A DNA stretch of 30,272 nucleotides from sequence record ON239131, one strand, 5' to 3'. The translations under genes and the position numbers were made by a program. Position 1 is the stretch's first letter, and the number at the start of each line of letters is the position of its first letter. Shown one piece after another: positions 3,169-30,125 of this stretch. The notes under the pieces were generated by a model that was not told the DNA's origin, ran no database searches, and saw only the letters and a program-made list of their open reading frames with translations. Source of the stretch: Escherichia phage S164.

Positions 3169-4023
3169 ATGGCAAAAAAAGTCTCAAAATTCTTTCGTAT
3201 CGGCGTTGAGGGTGACACCTGTGACGGGCGTGTCATCAGTGCGCAGGATATTCAGGAAATGGCCGAAACCTTTGACCCGCGAGTCTATGGTTGCCGCATT
3301 AACCTGGAACATCTGCGCGGCATCCTGCCTGACGGTATTTTTAAGCGTTATGGCGATGTGGCCGAACTGAAGGCCGAAAAGATTGACGATGATTCGGCGC
3401 TGAAAGGCAAATGGGCGCTGTTTGCGAAAATCACCCCGACCGATGACCTTATCGCGATGAACAAGGCCGCGCAGAAGGTCTATACCTCAATGGAAATTCA
3501 GCCGAACTTTGCCAATACCGGCAAATGTTATCTGGTGGGTCTGGCCGTCACCGATGACCCGGCAAGCCTCGGCACGGAATACCTGGAATTCTGCCGCACG
3601 GCAAAACACAACCCCCTGAACCGCTTCAAATTAAGCCCTGAAAACCTGATTTCAGTGGCAACGCCTGTTGAGCTGGAATTTGAAGACCTGCCTGAAACCG
3701 TGTTCACCGCCCTGACCGAAAAGGTGAAATCCATTTTTGGCCGCAAACAGGCCAGCGATGACGCCCGTCTGAATGACGTGCATGAAGCGGTGACCGCTGT
3801 TGCTGAACATGTGCAGGAAAAACTGAGCGCCACTGAGCAGCGCCTCGCTGAGATGGAAACCGCCTTTTCCGCACTTAAGCAGGATGTGACTGACAGGGCG
3901 GATGAAACCAGCCAGGCATTCACCCGCCTGAAAAACAGTCTCGACCACACCGAAAGTCTGACCCAGCAGCGCCGCAGCAAGGCCACCGGTGGTGGCGGTG
4001 ACGCCCTGATGACGAACTGCTGA
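3169..4023 (+). CDS. O: Capsid scaffolding protein, P2 gpO
   Basis: Starting at MAKKVSKFFRIGVEG gives 284 aa, equal to P2 O. It is transcribed divergently from P. Confidence 0.88.
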   Translation: MAKKVSKFFRIGVEGDTCDGRVISAQDIQEMAETFDPRVYGCRINLEHLRGILPDGIFKRYGDVAELKAEKIDDDSALKGKWALFAKITPTDDLIAMNKAAQKVYTSMEIQPNFANTGKCYLVGLAVTDDPASLGTEYLEFCRTAKHNPLNRFKLSPENLISVATPVELEFEDLPETVFTALTEKVKSIFGRKQASDDARLNDVHEAVTAVAEHVQEKLSATEQRLAEMETAFSALKQDVTDRADETSQAFTRLKNSLDHTESLTQQRRSKATGGGGDALMTNC

Positions 4024-4081
4024 CCGGCGTCAGTCAGTCCGGGAAAACCTTCACGATTAACCCTTAATTTCAGGAAAAACT

Positions 4082-5155
4082 ATGCGCCAGGAAACCCGCT
4101 TTAAATTTAATGCCTACCTGTCCCGTGTTGCCGAACTGAACGGCATCGACGCCGGTGATGTGTCGAAAAAATTCACCGTTGAACCGTCGGTCACCCAGAC
4201 CCTGATGAACACCATGCAGGAGTCCTCTGATTTTCTGACCCGCATCAACATTGTGCCGGTCAGCGAAATGAAAGGGGAAAAAATTGGTATTGGTGTCACC
4301 GGCTCCATCGCCAGCACCACCGACACCGCCGGTGGCACCGAGCGTCAGCCGAAGGACTTCTCGAAGCTGGCGTCCAGTAAGTACGAATGCGACCAGATTA
4401 ACTTCGATTTTTATATCCGCTACAAAACGCTGGACCTGTGGGCGCGTTATCAGGATTTCCAGCTCCGTGTCCGTAACGCCATTATCAAACGTCAGTCCCT
4501 TGATTTAATCATGGCCGGTTTTAACGGCGTGAAGCGTGCCGAAACCTCTGACCGCAGCAGCAATCCGATGCTGCAGGATGTGGCGGTCGGCTGGCTGCAG
4601 AAATACCGCAATGAAGCCCCGGCGCGCGTGATGAGCAAGGTTACTGACGAGGAAGGTCACACCACCTCTGAGGTCATCCGCGTGGGTAAGGGCGGTGATT
4701 ATGCCAGCCTCGATGCACTGGTGATGGATGCGACCAACAACCTGATTGAGCCGTGGTATCAGGAAGACCCTGACCTTGTGGTGATTGTGGGGCGTCAGTT
4801 ACTGGCGGACAAGTATTTCCCCATCGTTAACAAGGAGCAGGACAACAGCGAAATGCTGGCCGCTGACGTCATCATCAGCCAGAAACGCATCGGTAACCTG
4901 CCGGCGGTACGCGTCCCGTACTTCCCGGCGGATGCGATGCTCATCACGAAGCTGGAAAACCTGTCCATCTACTACATGGATGACAGCCATCGCCGCGTGA
5001 TTGAGGAAAACCCGAAACTCGACCGCGTGGAGAACTACGAGTCAATGAACATTGATTACGTGGTGGAAGACTACGCCGCCGGTTGTCTGGTGGAAAAAAT
5101 TAAGGTCGGTGACTTCTCCACACCGACTAAAGTGACCGCAGAGCCGGGAGCGTAA
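4082..5155 (+). CDS. N: Major capsid protein, P2 gpN
   Basis: 357 aa, equal to P2 N, in the O-N-M order. Confidence 0.9.
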   Translation: MRQETRFKFNAYLSRVAELNGIDAGDVSKKFTVEPSVTQTLMNTMQESSDFLTRINIVPVSEMKGEKIGIGVTGSIASTTDTAGGTERQPKDFSKLASSKYECDQINFDFYIRYKTLDLWARYQDFQLRVRNAIIKRQSLDLIMAGFNGVKRAETSDRSSNPMLQDVAVGWLQKYRNEAPARVMSKVTDEEGHTTSEVIRVGKGGDYASLDALVMDATNNLIEPWYQEDPDLVVIVGRQLLADKYFPIVNKEQDNSEMLAADVIISQKRIGNLPAVRVPYFPADAMLITKLENLSIYYMDDSHRRVIEENPKLDRVENYESMNIDYVVEDYAAGCLVEKIKVGDFSTPTKVTAEPGA

Positions 5156-24468: not shown

Positions 24469-24693
24469 ATGCATACAGTTTCTGAAAATCAGTGCGGTAA
24501 ATACGCATTACTGCTGCAACAGGCCAGAACCGAAGCACAGGCCGACGCAGCGACGCGCTTTTCTTCTCATCTTGACGCCATGATTCGCCACATCACAAAG
24601 GCGGAGTTATCCCGCGTGGAGATAGTCGAGCTGCTCAGTCAGGAGTCGGAAAAATTTCACAATATCGGATTGTCTCGCGGGGAGGTGCTTTGA
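24469..24693 (+). CDS. Hypothetical early protein (P2 orf80 position)
   Basis: 74-aa ORF with a GGAGAAAG ribosome-binding site. Its stop overlaps the next gene's start. Confidence 0.5.
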
Positions 24694-24995
24694 TGTCCTG
24701 TTCTCGTTCAGTTGTATTACTGAATAACGCCTTAAAAATCGCCGTTATGAAAAATGGCGATTTATCTCTTATTCAACTTGGTCTTGATAAAGAAAAACGC
24801 GAAATAACTGAGTCTGTTATCGCGATTTATCAGAACGAATTAAATCTCCTGTCTGATGTGGTCAATTTACTTGTTAAACGCGCTGTATTTCACAAGCAAA
24901 TCTCCTCCGTGGATGAACTGACGAAATTAACGACAGAAATTGCCAGCTATTGCGCTGATGAATTTAAAAAACTTAACGACAAAAGGAGCTGGTAA
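24690..24995 (+). CDS. Hypothetical early protein (P2 orf81 position)
   Basis: 101-aa ORF, translationally coupled on both sides. Confidence 0.55.
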
Positions 24996-25219
24996 TGCCG
25001 GACAACGTAGATTTTATTCAGAAACAACAGGCTGAATTACTGGAGCGCCAGATTAACGCGGCAAGGGTAAAGCATTGCGGTGTTTCTGCGCTGGTTTGCG
25101 AAGAGTGTGACGCGCCAATACCTGCTGCCCGTCGTGCGGCTTATCCGTCAGCCACGCGTTGTGTTTCCTGCCAGTCAGTCTTTGAAGCAAAAAACAAACA
25201 TTACCGGAGAACGTCATGA
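24995..25219 (+). CDS. TraR/DksA-family C4 zinc-finger protein (P2 orf82-like)
   Basis: 74 aa. The CEECDAPIP...RCVSCQ four-cysteine motif follows an N-terminal helix, the architecture of TraR/DksA. Confidence 0.7.
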   Translation: MPDNVDFIQKQQAELLERQINAARVKHCGVSALVCEECDAPIPAARRAAYPSATRCVSCQSVFEAKNKHYRRTS

Positions 25220-25491
25220 GTATTCGTATTGAAATTGGCGAACGTTATGTCGTTACCAGTGACAGCTTTCAGTTTATTCTCCACGAGAAAAAGAGAGCTG
25301 AAAGCGGTAAAAACGCCGGTCAGGAATGGCTGGCGGTGGTTGGTTATTACCCGAAATTAAGCCAGCTTGTTTCCGGCCTGATGCATCACGATATTCTGAC
25401 CGGAAGCGCAAAGTCTTTTGCTGATTTAAACGCGCAGGTTGAGCAACTCAGCAAGCGTTGTTCAGAGGCTTTTGGCTCATATGGCCGTTAA
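25216..25491 (+). CDS. Hypothetical early protein (P2 orf83 position)
   Basis: 91-aa ORF overlapping the A start. Confidence 0.55.
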   Translation: MSIRIEIGERYVVTSDSFQFILHEKKRAESGKNAGQEWLAVVGYYPKLSQLVSGLMHHDILTGSAKSFADLNAQVEQLSKRCSEAFGSYGR

Positions 25492-27766
25492 AGCCTCCGG
25501 GCGTTTTGTCCCTCCGTCAGCATTTGCCGCAGGCACCGGTGAGACGTTTACCGGTGCTTATGCATGGAACGCGCCACGCGAGGCCGTCGGGCGCGAAAGA
25601 CCCCTTACACGTGACGAGATGCGTCAGGTGCAAGGTGTTTTATCCACGATTAATCGCCTGCCTTACTTTTTGCGCTCGCTGTTTACTTCACGCTATGACT
25701 ACATCCGGCGCAATAAAAGCCCGGTGCACGGGTTTTATTTCCTCACATCCACTTTTCAGCGCCGTTTATGGCCGCGTATTGAGCGCGTGAATCAGCGCCA
25801 TGAAATGAACACCGACGCGTCGTTGCTGTTTCTGGCAGAGCGTGACCATTATGCGCGTCTGCCGGGGATGAATGACAAGGAGCTGAAAAAGTTTGCCGCC
25901 CGTATCTCATCGCAGCTTTTCATGATGTATGAGGAACTCTGCGATGCATGGGTTGATGCACATGGCGAGAAAGAATCGCTGTTTACAGATGAGGCGCAGG
26001 CGCATCTGTATGGTCATGTTGCTGGCGCTGCACGTGCTTTCAATATTTCCCCTCTCTACTGGAAAAAATACCGTAAAGGACAGATGACCACGAGGCAGGC
26101 ATATTCTGCCATTGCCCGTCTGTTTAACGATGAGTGGTGGACTCATCAGCTTAAAGGCCAGCGTATGCGCTGGCATGAGGCGTTACTGATTGCTGTCGGG
26201 GAGGTCAATAAAGACCGTTCTCCTTATGCCAGTAAACATGCCATTCGTGATGTGCGTGCACGCCGCCAGGCAAATCTGGAATTTCTTAAATCGTGTGACC
26301 TCGAAAACAGGGAAACCGGCGAGCGCATCGATCTTATCAGTAAGGTGATGGGCAGTATTTCTAATCCTGAAATTCGCCGGATGGAGCTGATGAACACCAT
26401 CGCCGGTATTGAGCGTTACGCCGCCGCAGAGGGTGATGTGGGGATGTTTATCACTCTGACCGCGCCGTCAAAGTATCACCCGACACGTCAGGTCGGAAAA
26501 GGCGAAAGTAAAACCGTCCAGCTAAATCACGGCTGGAATGATGAGGCATTTAATCCAAAGGATGCGCAGCGTTATCTCTGCCGCATCTGGAGCCTGATGC
26601 GCACGGCATTCAAGGATAATGATTTACAGGTCTACGGTTTGCGAGTCGTCGAGCCACACCACGACGGAACGCCGCACTGGCATATGATGCTTTTTTGTAA
26701 TCCACGCCAGCGTAACCAGATTATCGAAATCATGCGTCGCTATGCGCTCAAAGAGGATGGTGACGAAAGAGGAGCCGCGCGAAACCGTTTTCAGGCAAAA
26801 CACCTTAACCGGGGCGGTGCTGCGGGATATATCGCGAAATACATCTCAAAAAACATCGATGGCTATGCACTGGATGGTCAGCTCGATAACGATACCGGCA
26901 GGCCGCTGAAAGACACTGCCGCGGCTGTTACCGCATGGGCGTCAACGTGGCGCATTCCGCAATTTAAAACGGTTGGCCTGCCGACAATGGGGGCTTACCG
27001 TGAACTACGCAAATTGCCTCGCGGCGTCAGCATTGCTGATGAGTTTGACGAACGCGTCGAGGCTGCACGCGCTGCCGCAGACAGTGGTGATTTTGCGTTG
27101 TATATCAGCGCGCAGGGTGGGGCAAATGTTCCGCGCGATTGTCAGACTGTCAGGGTTGCCCGTAGTCCGTCGGATGAAGTTAACGAGTACGAGGAAGAAG
27201 TCGAGAGAGTGGTCGGCATTTACGCGCCGCATCTCGGCGCGCGTCATATTCATATCACCAGAACGACGGACTGGCGCATTGTTCCGAAAGTGCCGGTCGT
27301 TGAGCCTTTGACTTTAAAAAGCGGCATCGCCGCGCCTCGGAGTCCTGTCAATAACTGTGGAAAGCTCACCGGTGGTGATACTTCGTTACCGGCTCCCACA
27401 CCTTCTGAGCACGCCGCAGCAGTGCTAAATCTGGTTGATGACGGTGTTATCGAATGGAATGACCCGGAGGTTGTGAGGACGCTCAGGGGTGCATTAAAAC
27501 ACGGCCTGAAAACACCAAATCGTCAGCAAAGAAACGGAAGCCCGTTAAAACCACATGAAATAGCACCGTCGGCCAGACTGACCCGGTCGGAACGATTGCA
27601 AATTACCCGTATCCGCGTTGACCTCGCTCAGAACGGTATCAGGCCGCAACGATGGGAGCTTGAGGCGCTGGCGCGTGGCGCGACAGTAAATTATGACGGG
27701 AAAAAATTCACGTATCCGGTCGCTGATGAGTGGTCGGGATTCTCAACAGTAATGGAGTGGACATGA
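25481..27766 (+). CDS. A: Rolling-circle replication initiator endonuclease, P2 gpA
   Basis: Starting at MAVKASGRFVPPSAFAAGTG gives 761 aa, equal to P2 A. It contains the HUH-type histidine motif GTPHWHMMLF and tyrosine-containing GAAGYIAKYISKN. The ORF-track start at 25439 adds 14 aa. Confidence 0.9.
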   Translation: MAVKASGRFVPPSAFAAGTGETFTGAYAWNAPREAVGRERPLTRDEMRQVQGVLSTINRLPYFLRSLFTSRYDYIRRNKSPVHGFYFLTSTFQRRLWPRIERVNQRHEMNTDASLLFLAERDHYARLPGMNDKELKKFAARISSQLFMMYEELCDAWVDAHGEKESLFTDEAQAHLYGHVAGAARAFNISPLYWKKYRKGQMTTRQAYSAIARLFNDEWWTHQLKGQRMRWHEALLIAVGEVNKDRSPYASKHAIRDVRARRQANLEFLKSCDLENRETGERIDLISKVMGSISNPEIRRMELMNTIAGIERYAAAEGDVGMFITLTAPSKYHPTRQVGKGESKTVQLNHGWNDEAFNPKDAQRYLCRIWSLMRTAFKDNDLQVYGLRVVEPHHDGTPHWHMMLFCNPRQRNQIIEIMRRYALKEDGDERGAARNRFQAKHLNRGGAAGYIAKYISKNIDGYALDGQLDNDTGRPLKDTAAAVTAWASTWRIPQFKTVGLPTMGAYRELRKLPRGVSIADEFDERVEAARAAADSGDFALYISAQGGANVPRDCQTVRVARSPSDEVNEYEEEVERVVGIYAPHLGARHIHITRTTDWRIVPKVPVVEPLTLKSGIAAPRSPVNNCGKLTGGDTSLPAPTPSEHAAAVLNLVDDGVIEWNDPEVVRTLRGALKHGLKTPNRQQRNGSPLKPHEIAPSARLTRSERLQITRIRVDLAQNGIRPQRWELEALARGATVNYDGKKFTYPVADEWSGFSTVMEWT

Positions 27767-28218
27767 TGGCAAAAATTCACGAGGTAAAGCTGCACGCAAA
27801 ATATTTCGACCTTGTGCTGGAAGGAAAGAAACGCGCAGAGTTTCGGAAAAATGACCGTAATTATGAGCGCGGGGACACGTTGATTTTGCATGAATGGGGG
27901 CAGGGTGTGTATACGGGGCGAAAGGTTGAAGCCCGGATAACAGATGTTACTGACCTGTCAGACTGGCTGGAAGATTATGTCTTGCTAAGTATTGAGCTGC
28001 TTAATACAGGCGCATATGAGATTGTGAACAGGAAAGAACTTAGTGAGCGTGGTCTGTTATTCAGAATTAATCATGAAATTATGCATAAGCTCGGCCTTGC
28101 TGTTATGTATGAACCAGAGACGGGAATGTCTGGCGGGGCAATGGTTGCCACGGATGGAGCATGGAACTATTCAGATGAACAGATGGAGCGTGCACAGCAA
28201 AACGGGTGGCTTGGATAA
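27763..28218 (+). CDS. DUF3850/ASCH-like (PUA-fold) protein with an extra C-terminal domain; first gene of the A-to-cos accessory locus
   Basis: Its start, ATGATGG, overlaps the A stop. The N-terminus KIHEVKLHAKYFDLVLEGKKRAEFRKNDRNYERGDTLILHEW fits the DUF3850/ASCH signature pattern (KxHELKxxxxYFxxVxxGxKxFEIRKNDRxFxxGDxLxLxEW). 151 aa. Confidence 0.6.
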   Translation: MMAKIHEVKLHAKYFDLVLEGKKRAEFRKNDRNYERGDTLILHEWGQGVYTGRKVEARITDVTDLSDWLEDYVLLSIELLNTGAYEIVNRKELSERGLLFRINHEIMHKLGLAVMYEPETGMSGGAMVATDGAWNYSDEQMERAQQNGWLG

Positions 28219-28424
28219 TGCACAGAATACCAGGCGAGATACCGCACCATAAAACTAAAAATATCAAGCTGATGGCTATTGTTCAGCGTTTACAGCGGAT
28301 TATGGTCAACGAAAATCTGACGCCCGATGAGCTAGTCGGGTGTGCCGAAATAGTCCGGGATAATTACGGGCGGTTTAACTATATCGGTCAGTCCAGAGTT
28401 GCGCCACCACCACGCAGACGATAG
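28218..28424 (+). CDS. Small hypothetical protein, translationally coupled to the DUF3850 gene
   Basis: The ATG at 28218 overlaps the upstream TAA. 68 aa, with a basic PPPRRR C-terminus. The ORF-track start at 28206 is a GTG. Confidence 0.45.
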   Translation: MHRIPGEIPHHKTKNIKLMAIVQRLQRIMVNENLTPDELVGCAEIVRDNYGRFNYIGQSRVAPPPRRR

Positions 28425-28427
28425 ATA

Positions 28428-28470
28428 ACGCCGCCAGTCGTGAAACTTGTTTTCAGGGCTGGCGGCGTTG
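28428..28470 (+). terminator. Stem-loop with an 11-bp perfect inverted repeat (AACGCCGCCAG...CTGGCGGCGTT) closing the A operon
   Basis: Seen directly. The 21-nt loop contains a T-rich stretch. It is part of the first copy of the 61-bp conserved element. Confidence 0.4.
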
Positions 28471-28653: not shown

Positions 28654-29385
28654 ATGGATACTATAATCGCTTTTCTATCACTCGCTTTTTTTGTTGCTTT
28701 TTTCATCGGGTTAATCAAGCCATCACTGGTGCGAATGCCAAGCCGCAAACGTGCAAGTGCGGTTTATCTCGGAGGAGGTTTTGTATTGAGCATAATTGGT
28801 TCAATACTCTATCCAACAGAAAAAAGCCAGCCAGTTGCTAAAACTGAAACATCAACCGTTGTAGAACACCAAGTCCAAAAAACATTCGAATATGGTGAAA
28901 AAACACTCAAGGAATATCGGAGCGAGCCAAAGAAAACTCGACACGATATTGTGAATAGTTACATTGACTTTAAGAAAGTTCCAGTCACCGCATCAGATGC
29001 ATTTTATGCCTGCATGAGTGAGTATACATTTACCAAAGATGATGAGTTGAAACTCGGTGATGTTCTTGGGTGGTGCTTTAATGATTATGAAAATGACCCG
29101 AGTTCACTAAATAATAAAATCAATCTTGATACATTTCAGAGTAATTTTAGTGGTTGGGATGGTTCTTATCGTCCATTGGAAAAACTAATTAAAGATAATA
29201 TGAACGATGATTCATCTTATAAACATGTATCAACGGTATATCATTTAGTTTTGAATAAAGACCCGCACGCCATTGTGAAAACGACGTTTCGCGGCACTAA
29301 TGCTTATGGTGGCATGGTCAAACAGACTGTAGCAGCGCGAGTTGACGTGCGAACGGGTGAGATCGATTCAATACTCGACAATTAA
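28654..29385 (+). CDS. Hypothetical membrane protein (two N-terminal transmembrane helices, C-terminal soluble domain of about 180 aa): accessory cargo gene 1
   Basis: AT-rich ORF. MDTIIAFLSLAFFVAFFIGLI and AVYLGGGFVLSIIGSILY are hydrophobic helices separated by a positively charged loop. An AAAGGA ribosome-binding site stands 6 nt before ATG 28654; a GTG at 28630 is an alternative start. I recognise no family. Confidence 0.6.
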   Translation: MDTIIAFLSLAFFVAFFIGLIKPSLVRMPSRKRASAVYLGGGFVLSIIGSILYPTEKSQPVAKTETSTVVEHQVQKTFEYGEKTLKEYRSEPKKTRHDIVNSYIDFKKVPVTASDAFYACMSEYTFTKDDELKLGDVLGWCFNDYENDPSSLNNKINLDTFQSNFSGWDGSYRPLEKLIKDNMNDDSSYKHVSTVYHLVLNKDPHAIVKTTFRGTNAYGGMVKQTVAARVDVRTGEIDSILDN

Positions 29386-29468: not shown

Positions 29469-30125
29469 ATGCGTAGAATGGAAGCTGCTTGGACGTGGGG
29501 TATTCATATGAATTTAAAAATTTTCGGCATAATTGTCCTTTCTGCTTTGATGTTCGTTTTAGGTTTTTTTCTCGGTGGTTTTAATTGGGAATGGGCTGAT
29601 AAGAATTATGCAGGTGAGGTGGCGTTGTGGAGTATGTTAGGAGGGTGGTTATCCGCAATTGCAACTCTGTTTGCCGTGTTGGTTTCATTATATATGGCGT
29701 ATCAAGCTACTCAGAATGAGATTGAAAAAATCAGGGTTACTCATGGAGTAAGTATGAGTGTCACTCATGACAATGAGTTAAGTTGTAATCTCATTATTCA
29801 GAACTTGAGAAATATGAAAGTGAATATTACTGGTGTTTTTTTGTCTCTAGGTAAATCATCAGGTAAGTACTCTTTGGATAAAGTAATTGACAATTGTAAT
29901 ATAACGCTTTCATATAAAGGTGAAACAGAAAAGGTACAATTTGTAATCCATTCTGGGTATATTTGGTGGTCAATGTATAAATTATTCGATATGGATAAGA
30001 ACATAGGTTTTGAAAAGGGTAAGATCTTTATAACAACCAACCTCAATACATATGAATTTGATTTGCCAAAAGAATATTTAAGAGCTTTTGAGAAAGCTTA
30101 TTCGGAGTATCAGACAAAAAAATAA
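29469..30125 (+). CDS. Hypothetical membrane protein (two N-terminal transmembrane helices plus a C-terminal domain): accessory cargo gene 2
   Basis: AT-rich ORF. IFGIIVLSALMFVLGFFLGGF and LGGWLSAIATLFAVLVSLYMAY are transmembrane helices. ATG 29469 has an AAGGTG ribosome-binding site; ATGs at 29454 and 29508 are alternatives. No recognisable similarity to cargo gene 1 or to any family I know. Confidence 0.55.
   Translation: MRRMEAAWTWGIHMNLKIFGIIVLSALMFVLGFFLGGFNWEWADKNYAGEVALWSMLGGWLSAIATLFAVLVSLYMAYQATQNEIEKIRVTHGVSMSVTHDNELSCNLIIQNLRNMKVNITGVFLSLGKSSGKYSLDKVIDNCNITLSYKGETEKVQFVIHSGYIWWSMYKLFDMDKNIGFEKGKIFITTNLNTYEFDLPKEYLRAFEKAYSEYQTKK

Follow-up and report, generated by a model that had tools for sequence, protein, structure and literature searches.

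A DUF3850-DUF7415 gene and its small partner behind replication gene A of Escherichia phage S164: a candidate lytic-cycle accessory of P2-like phages

In phage P2, replication gene A is followed on the same strand by orf91, the function of which is listed as unknown in the P2 literature (PMC3091744), and then, on the opposite strand, by tin and old. P2 Orf91 (NP_046796.1; NC_001895 30316..30645) is described by RefSeq as a DUF3850 domain-containing protein, and the same family is given for gene 3 of the P2 old-tin clone in the HHpred table of Rousset et al. 2022, who characterised the gpA-gpQ region as an anti-phage hotspot of P2-like phages (PMC9122126). Here we describe the corresponding locus of Escherichia phage S164 (sequence record ON239131), which was analysed as one stretch of 30,272 nucleotides (nt), hereafter the window, comprising the whole P2-like phage genome from cos to cos. 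Behind gene A this locus carries two overlapping open reading frames (ORFs): an orf91-type gene of 151 amino acids (aa) with a DUF3850/ASCH domain and a DUF7415 domain, and a partner gene of 68 aa. The pair may represent a dispensable accessory of the lytic cycle that acts on RNA or nucleotides and is expressed in a manner coupled to A, a reading to which we assign a probability of about 0.55.

The gene and its surroundings are already known as such. RefSeq, Pfam and PHROGs all cover the gene, and this very locus appears in the published hotspot catalogue, with the entry "DUF3850/ASCH + hypothetical + hypothetical + hypothetical" in Table S5A (Rousset et al. 2022, PMC9122126). The proteins named in that table include WP_053272972, the product of the 68-aa ORF, and WP_042002655, the product of the first cargo gene downstream, as in an Escherichia coli prophage that is 99.8% identical to the window; the four-gene locus of the catalogue is the same as that of the window. 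This arrangement is not among the systems reported as tested (PMC9122126). All gpA-gpQ content is pooled in the catalogue, and the semi-conserved pair is not split there from the variable cargo. A literature search on orf91 and on phage DUF3850 proteins gave nothing on function.

The orf91-type gene and its counterpart in P2

The window is organised with the portal and terminase genes at the left, followed by the late genes, int, the early operon and A. The replication initiator gene A, recognised from the ORF list and from homology to P2 gpA, occupies 25481..27766 on the plus strand, and is labelled "replication endonuclease" at the equivalent coordinates of the 99.8% identical prophage. Its stop codon TGA (27764-27766) is overlapped by the orf91-type gene (27763..28218, plus strand), which opens in ACATGATGG and has two in-frame ATG codons, at 27763 and 27766, giving products of 151 and 150 aa, respectively. 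The ACATGATGG junction is common to the window, P2 and Wphi, while many other relatives have ACATAATGG, in which the second ATG alone is present. Since that ATG is the only one in these relatives and is also the start annotated by RefSeq in the 99.8% identical prophage, the true start is probably at 27766, giving a protein of 150 aa. A GGAG sequence (27754..27757, plus strand), located inside the last codons of A and 5-8 nt upstream of the two candidate starts, may function as a Shine-Dalgarno-like element. The partner gene (28218..28424, plus strand) opens in GATAATG, its ATG sharing one base with the TAA of the orf91-type gene.

Both ORFs had been placed at these positions by the first-pass annotation, a model's reading of the letters and an ORF list, as had the overlaps, ATGA with the stop of A and then TAATG, and all of this was confirmed on the sequence. 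The same annotation held that the two genes are translationally coupled to the replication operon. The overlapping arrangement does hold and is conserved in relatives, while the coupling itself is presumed. Those relatives that retain the gene keep its overlap with A as ATGA or TAATG, a few variant junctions excepted. A scan between A and both ORFs revealed no promoter above chance and no terminator.

Several lines of evidence show that both ORFs are real genes under purifying selection, not chance ORFs, and that they travel as a pair, because they have Pfam or PHROG matches, show ratios of non-synonymous to synonymous substitution (dN/dS) of 0.19-0.44 and persist together at 51-55% identity in an Enterobacter phage. 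The PHROG matches are full-length, at 9.5e-80 for the orf91-type gene and at E 4.9e-39 for the small one (phrog_11386, residues 1-68 of a 69-position profile). Among close relatives, dN/dS is lowest in the ASCH domain (0.19) and higher in the 68-aa ORF (0.36) and DUF7415 (0.44). In the Enterobacter P2-like prophage, the gene next to A encodes a DUF3850-DUF7415 protein (51% identical) and the one after it a 77-aa homologue of the small protein (55%), the two genes overlapping by 4 nt.

The 151-aa gene appears to be an orthologue, or an allele, of P2 orf91, because the two share their position, the ATGA junction and 96% identity over residues 1-75. Each is the first gene after A, on the same strand, and its overlap with the stop of A (30319 in P2) consists of the same four bases in both. 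On alignment, the P2 DNA is identical or nearly identical over the first ~247 nt of the ORF and unrelated beyond, and the proteins have no similarity after residue 75. P2 Orf91 has 109 aa and ends in a 34-aa tail dissimilar to the window protein, which has DUF7415 in that place; P2 has neither this domain nor the 68-aa partner. The N-terminal domain thus seems to be orthologous to that of P2 Orf91 and the C-terminus to represent a different allele, the two-domain form being, by these comparisons, a common one. At first the locus had been set apart from that of P2, in which A is followed by orf91, tin and old, a distinction that is lost once the ORF itself is recognised as an orf91 homologue with the same ATGA and a DUF3850 domain.

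Other P2-like phages are closer to the window than P2 at this point. Over both ORFs and the hairpin that follows them, Wphi has the DNA of the window at 96.5% identity, and Wphi, Peduovirus P22H4, phage 9W and Yersinia P2-like phages taken together show 95-96.5% DNA identity over this part. In P22H4 and 9W the beginning of the downstream region is also common with the window, although the single downstream gene of P22H4 that was checked, Orf97, has coordinates different from those of the window cargo genes. The 68-aa ORF is left unannotated in the P22H4 record. In the Wphi record (L002, NC_005056), positions 3863-4640 contain seven one-base insertions relative to the window over orf91/gp92. 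The 93-aa orf91 and 64-aa gp92 of that record have the appearance of frameshift artefacts, or of 151-aa and 68-aa genes in decay, and the BFVD entry for Wphi Gp92 matches the C-terminal domain of the window protein (83% over 42 residues).

Domains of the two proteins

Structure prediction, which the first-pass annotation had proposed for both proteins, was run with AlphaFold2 and yielded a two-domain protein and a helical hairpin. The model of the 151-aa protein (mean predicted local distance difference test score, pLDDT, 87.8) consists of a beta-barrel N-terminal domain and a small alpha/beta C-terminal domain, connected by a low-confidence linker at approximately residues 81-90.

The N-terminal domain (residues 5-77; 27775..27993, plus strand) matches both Pfam DUF3850 (PF12961; 65.4 bits, cut-off 22.9; E 5.5e-18) and Pfam ASCH (43.4 bits, cut-off 21.2; E 5.8e-11), as well as an 83-aa protein of Enterococcus faecalis with a solved structure (3IUW, E 4.6e-13). 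Its beta-barrel is of the PUA-like fold, and the assignment of the first 75 or so residues to an ASCH/PUA-like DUF3850 domain, made originally from the letters, agrees with the Pfam matches, 3IUW and the model. The ASCH octapeptide GxKxxExR is intact as GKKRAEFR (G21-K-K23-R-A-E26-F-R28). In 13 diverse DUF3850 sequences from phages and prophages, the Lys and Arg of this motif are invariant and the Glu is found in 11. The E. faecalis protein, named "activating signal cointegrator" and also belonging to DUF3850, has the K..E.R and NDR motifs in common with the window protein; it is, however, a stand-alone single domain, a structural-genomics entry of unknown function, whereas the window protein has two domains.

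An activity is described for the ASCH-domain ac4C (N4-acetylcytidine) amidohydrolases and tRNA ac4C deacetylases, represented by YqfB of E. coli (PDB 9KYF) and TthASCH of Thermus. Glu-type ASCH proteins were reported to deacetylate ac4C in tRNA, with the Lys and Glu of the octapeptide being essential; no DUF3850 protein was tested (preprint 10.64898/2026.02.27.708502). The Lys and Glu of the Glu-type enzymes are both present in the window protein. On the other hand, YqfB and TthASCH have 103-121 aa against about 75 aa here, the identity to YqfB is 15%, and Thr24 of YqfB is replaced by Glu. The Lys21/Thr24/Glu74 set of YqfB-type ac4C amidohydrolases was accordingly rejected for this protein: the Thr position is occupied by Glu26, as in the Glu type, and an equivalent of Glu74 is not assignable. 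Despite the failed Thr-type triad, the preprint on Glu-type proteins keeps a catalytic function open as an option.

The C-terminal extension of roughly 75 aa, initially left unassigned, belongs to a family as well, with residues 91-129 matching Pfam PF24187 (DUF7415; 40.5 bits, cut-off 27; E 3.2e-10). The domain spans approximately residues 88-146 (28024..28200, plus strand), has a helix-helix-hairpin-helix arrangement and carries the motif GL..RIN.EI.H.LGLA...G.S.GA.V..DG.W.Y. An exhaustive HMMER search gave 160 DUF7415 cluster representatives, mostly proteins of 56-200 aa, and the consensus of 143 representatives reads IDWNeLSelGLieRINrEILHPLGLAv.RdpeTG.S.GALVapDG.WEY. The conserved columns of this consensus, and of a further alignment (A5), are matched in the window protein by G97, L98, I102, N103, E105, H108, G111, L112, A113, G121, S123, D131, G132 and Y136. 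A zincin-type metalloprotease was considered on account of the HExxH-like H104-E-I-M-H108 (in "NHEIMH") and was rejected, the first His being R, K or T across the family (INrEILHP) and close relatives having HDIMH. A literature search found no paper that mentions DUF7415.

In other phages and prophages this domain is found with several partners. In 186-like prophages, it forms the C-terminal part of a 157-aa fusion protein (P0310) with DUF5405 (the Orf83 family), the gene of which ends 3 nt before A. These prophages and the window have the same C-terminal DUF7415 module on a small early-operon protein adjoining A; in P0310, however, the N-terminal domain is of the Orf83 family and not ASCH, the gene is located upstream of A, and no 68-aa partner comes after. 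Upstream of A, the early operon of a Pectobacterium P2-like prophage encodes an Rv2179c-like 3'-5' exoribonuclease with DUF7415 fused to it, and in another prophage the domain is fused to a dATP/dGTP pyrophosphohydrolase, the gene of which precedes RecE/RecT by a few genes. Further partners are thymidylate kinase, MazG-like and ClpX-zinc-finger proteins. In a T4-like phage, nrdD and nrdG flank a stand-alone DUF7415 gene. A T5-like phage has the domain in a 131-aa protein, the gene of which comes last in an nrdD-Sir2 operon and precedes that of the origin-binding protein. DUF7415 may thus be regarded as a portable small domain, occurring alone or as a C-terminal add-on. DUF3850 or DUF7415 was detected in 1,134 phage records taken together. 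Virulent phages are among the carriers of each domain, with DUF3850 present in T7-like, T1-like and Enterococcus phages and DUF7415 in T4-like and T5-like ones.

The 68-aa protein has 179 homologues, and the named ones among the 120 matches listed all come from Enterobacteriaceae; no Pfam domain was found in these 120. In the phage collection its gene is limited to 33 P2-like records. The core of the protein (residues ~17-50) is near-invariant (KLMAIV.RLQ.IMVNENLTP.ELVGCAEIVRDNY), and it is followed by a variable, Pro/Arg-rich tail that ends in PPRR(R). AlphaFold2 predicts a two-helix hairpin with helices at residues 10-31 and 36-59, for which a Foldseek search of PDB returned no match and a PDB sequence search only chance-level ones.

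Two bases past the stop codon of the 68-aa gene, the sequence can form a strong RNA hairpin (28426..28470, plus strand) with a stem of about 14+5 bp, which is conserved in Wphi. Its centroid structure has a free energy of -32.5 kcal/mol (z -4.46 against shuffles). The early transcript may have its 3' end here, either Rho-dependent or stabilised by the hairpin. A search of Rfam found no RNA family anywhere in the window.

Distribution of the pair and the cargo behind it

For an estimate of its distribution, 80 close loci were chosen from IMG/VR, in which the C-terminus of A is 96-99% identical to that of the window. The two-domain gene follows A in half of these (40 loci, with 39 intact copies and one frameshifted), always together with the 68-aa ORF. 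The P2-type 109-aa allele was found in three loci, an 80-aa allele with DUF3850 only in two, stubs with breakpoints after codon 6, ~22 or ~57 in 12, and nothing recognisable in the remaining 23. In five of these 23 loci a copy of the 68-aa ORF persists although the first gene is missing; in L056, the single case examined closely, inserted cargo separates A from codon ~17 of the small ORF, which leaves a truncated 51-aa copy. Complete E. coli genomes contain the 3' end of A at 1,928 places (1,681 genomes), and both ORFs at 413 places in 403 genomes, or approximately 21% of P2-type A sites.

These counts (40 of 80 relatives, ~413 of 1,928 E. coli sites) are in line with the original view of the genes as accessory ones and not a universal core. 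The annotation had also envisaged the opposite outcome, that they might prove to be orf91-like early genes present in all relatives. The first half of this proved correct, the gene being an orthologue of P2 orf91, and the second half did not. The pair is thus common without being universal, and we infer that it is dispensable for a P2-type phage, because P2 does without DUF7415 and the 68-aa ORF and the orf91-type gene is unrecognisable in 23 of 80 relatives with a near-identical A. Counting truncations, the gene is absent or incomplete in 35 of the 80, which argues against its essentiality.

To judge from the alignments, the pair sits at the ragged border between the phage backbone and its variable region. 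Recurrent breakpoints were observed after the A stop (L021, L028, L030, L055, L056 and similar IMG/VR loci); within orf91 they fall after codons 6 (MAKIHE/A), ~22, ~57 and 75, and within the small ORF at codons ~17 and ~58-62. The 51-aa truncation of the small ORF occurs widely, and some records carry it under the wrong name 'meiotically up-regulated 80 protein'.

Two cargo genes, considered here only as context, are located between the pair and cos (28654..29385 and 29469..30125, both on the plus strand; phrog_3403 and phrog_16957). Both encoded proteins have hydrophobic N-termini and are labelled hypothetical in RefSeq; neither gave a significant match in Pfam, PADLOC or NCBIfam, and they may be seen as candidates for an exclusion or defence function. 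In related loci this position is highly variable: the 2 kb after the 68-aa ORF contain 15 unrelated cargo clusters in 45 related loci and the window, and the cargo set of the window recurs in six of the 45. Methyltransferase models swamped the PADLOC results for the cargo of relatives and made them uninformative alone, and Pfam was used instead; it identified genes for C5-methylase, HEPN, GmrSD_N, AAA_21/AAA_15 and subtilase proteins. The pair always adjoins A and lies between gpA and gpQ. Because 15 different cargo sets are found beyond it, the pair is a semi-constant flank and not one module with the downstream island. The multi-gene accessory module suggested by the first-pass annotation does not agree with the 15 unrelated clusters in 46 loci.

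Proposed role and alternative explanations

According to the reading that we favour, both genes would be transcribed and translated together with A from the early promoter during lytic growth, and the early transcript would probably end at the hairpin 28426-28470. The ASCH domain, with its Lys-Glu-Arg octapeptide, would bind, and perhaps deacylate, modified cytidine or another RNA or nucleotide ligand. DUF7415 would be a portable C-terminal add-on that phages attach to nucleotide or RNA proteins, or to proteins flanking A, and the 68-aa protein might modulate the two-domain protein or act as its partner. A lytic rather than a lysogenic role is suggested because the pair is co-oriented and overlapped with A, the coupled arrangement is kept in most relatives, and the domains occur in virulent phages.

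Several observations weigh against this interpretation. In Enterobacter orthologues (P0024 and P0026), the octapeptide Glu is replaced by Leu, unlike in Glu-type ASCH enzymes; because of this, catalysis, if there is any, would not be conserved throughout the family, and binding may be the shared function. The DUF3850 domain is shorter than every ASCH protein with demonstrated activity. The hairpin has no U tract and was not called by a simple terminator scan. A Pseudomonas P2-like phage has a stand-alone DUF7415 gene between gpL and gpX, in the late operon; this copy weakens the rule, considered at one stage, that DUF7415 always sits next to gpA, and because of it the link of the domain with nucleotide and replication genes appears as a tendency, not a rule. 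Lastly, P2 orf91 was called "an essential protein" in passing, in the Methods of a 2025 preprint that explains the choice of a quantitative PCR target and gives no data on the point (PMC12407873), and this remark conflicts with the dispensability deduced from the relatives.

A bolder version of the same reading would make P2-family Orf91 and phage DUF3850 proteins minimal ASCH enzymes of early infection, stripping N4-acyl groups off cytidines of host tRNA or of the nucleotide pool; DUF7415 would then serve for targeting or regulation, as a portable module, and the 68-aa hairpin protein would be its partner. This version, which draws on motif conservation and one preprint, is unlikely in our estimate. 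In E. coli, ac4C34 of elongator tRNA-Met would be a candidate tRNA target. If the proposal were true, the phage would encode an RNA-modification eraser that retunes translation or nucleotide salvage in lytic growth. The intact octapeptide makes tRNA ac4C deacetylation a claim that is directly testable on a very abundant phage family.

Among the alternatives, counter-defence is the one that survives best. The small early proteins, notably DUF7415 and the hairpin protein, might neutralise host immunity early in infection, through the binding or destruction of a nucleic-acid or nucleotide signal or the inhibition of a defence protein. Such a role would suit small proteins that are made early and encoded at the margin of the most variable part of P2-like genomes, their patchy presence among near-identical phages, the wide occurrence of both domains as small stand-alone genes in virulent phages, and the higher dN/dS of DUF7415 compared with the ASCH domain (0.44 against 0.19); an anti-defence role was also speculated upon by authors who surveyed ParB-DUF3850 fusions in prophages. 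However, no likeness in sequence or fold to characterised anti-defence proteins was found, the PDB searches with the 68-aa protein having been empty with Foldseek and at chance level by sequence, and DUF7415 is mostly a C-terminal add-on of housekeeping-type nucleotide and RNA enzymes. Counter-defence is therefore a possible explanation, though a doubtful one.

A defence or exclusion system of the prophage, in which the pair and the two downstream membrane proteins would together constitute a lysogenic conversion directed against other phages, is considerably harder to defend. It draws on the location inside the gpA-gpQ anti-phage hotspot (PMC9122126) and on the HEPN, GmrSD_N, AAA_21/AAA_15, C5-methylase and subtilase genes among the cargo of relatives. 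Against it stand the exchange of cargo, 15 unrelated sets in 46 loci, behind a constant flank, and the database results: PADLOC-DB 2.0 gave one match for the four proteins, covering 20 residues of the orf91-type protein (12.4 bits, E 0.027), and none for the 68-aa or cargo proteins, and NCBIfam offered nothing useful for any of the four. Moreover, the pair begins in overlap with the stop of A, the scan gave no promoter above chance for it, and P2 retains the ASCH domain, yet its tin and old genes are on the opposite strand with their own transcript starts. A defence reading had been raised by the first-pass annotation, and the absence of a meaningful PADLOC match, the co-orientation and overlap with the lytic gene A and the frequency of the domains in virulent phages speak against it as highly improbable. 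Hence, we infer that the pair is neither a defence system expressed in the lysogen nor one unit with the island.

That the pair is merely decaying passenger DNA, functionless remnants at a recombination-prone boundary, is hardly credible: many breakpoints in relatives (orf91 codons 6, ~22, ~57 and 75, and inside the small ORF), frameshifted copies (L029 and the Wphi record) and deletion chimeras do exist, but dN/dS is well below 1 for both genes, 39 of 40 two-domain copies are intact, a second genus has kept the pair, overlap included, at 51-55% identity, and both domains belong to large conserved phage families.

Surveys of the gpA-gpQ region that count all of its content as defence cargo take in this semi-conserved pair of the lytic operon, which probably has no defence role. 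The pattern seen for DUF7415, which is added both to nucleotide or RNA enzymes and to small proteins flanking A, offers a starting point for work on a domain without a literature.

Some minor observations concern the same domains in other P2-like and 186-like prophages. The DUF5405 fusion, the exoribonuclease fusion and the stand-alone gpL/gpX copy of DUF7415 are found at L083 6001-6474, L093 5001-5900 and L097 5001-5210, respectively, and the exoribonuclease-DUF7415 gene is followed by Dam and PAPS-reductase genes, still upstream of A. Four proteins of E. coli prophages (P0017, P0030, P0037 and P0038) are deletion chimeras, each with the DUF7415 part joined in frame behind the N-terminus of Cox, B or A; in P0037 and P0038 the join is right before FRINHEIMH, a right-hand junction that the two have in common. 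In the early operon of the window, an orf81-like gene (24690-24995) and an orf83-like gene (25216-25491) are both labelled DUF5405 in a near-identical RefSeq prophage, and the operon may hold two paralogous small proteins of this family, the one that is fused to DUF7415 in 186-like phages.

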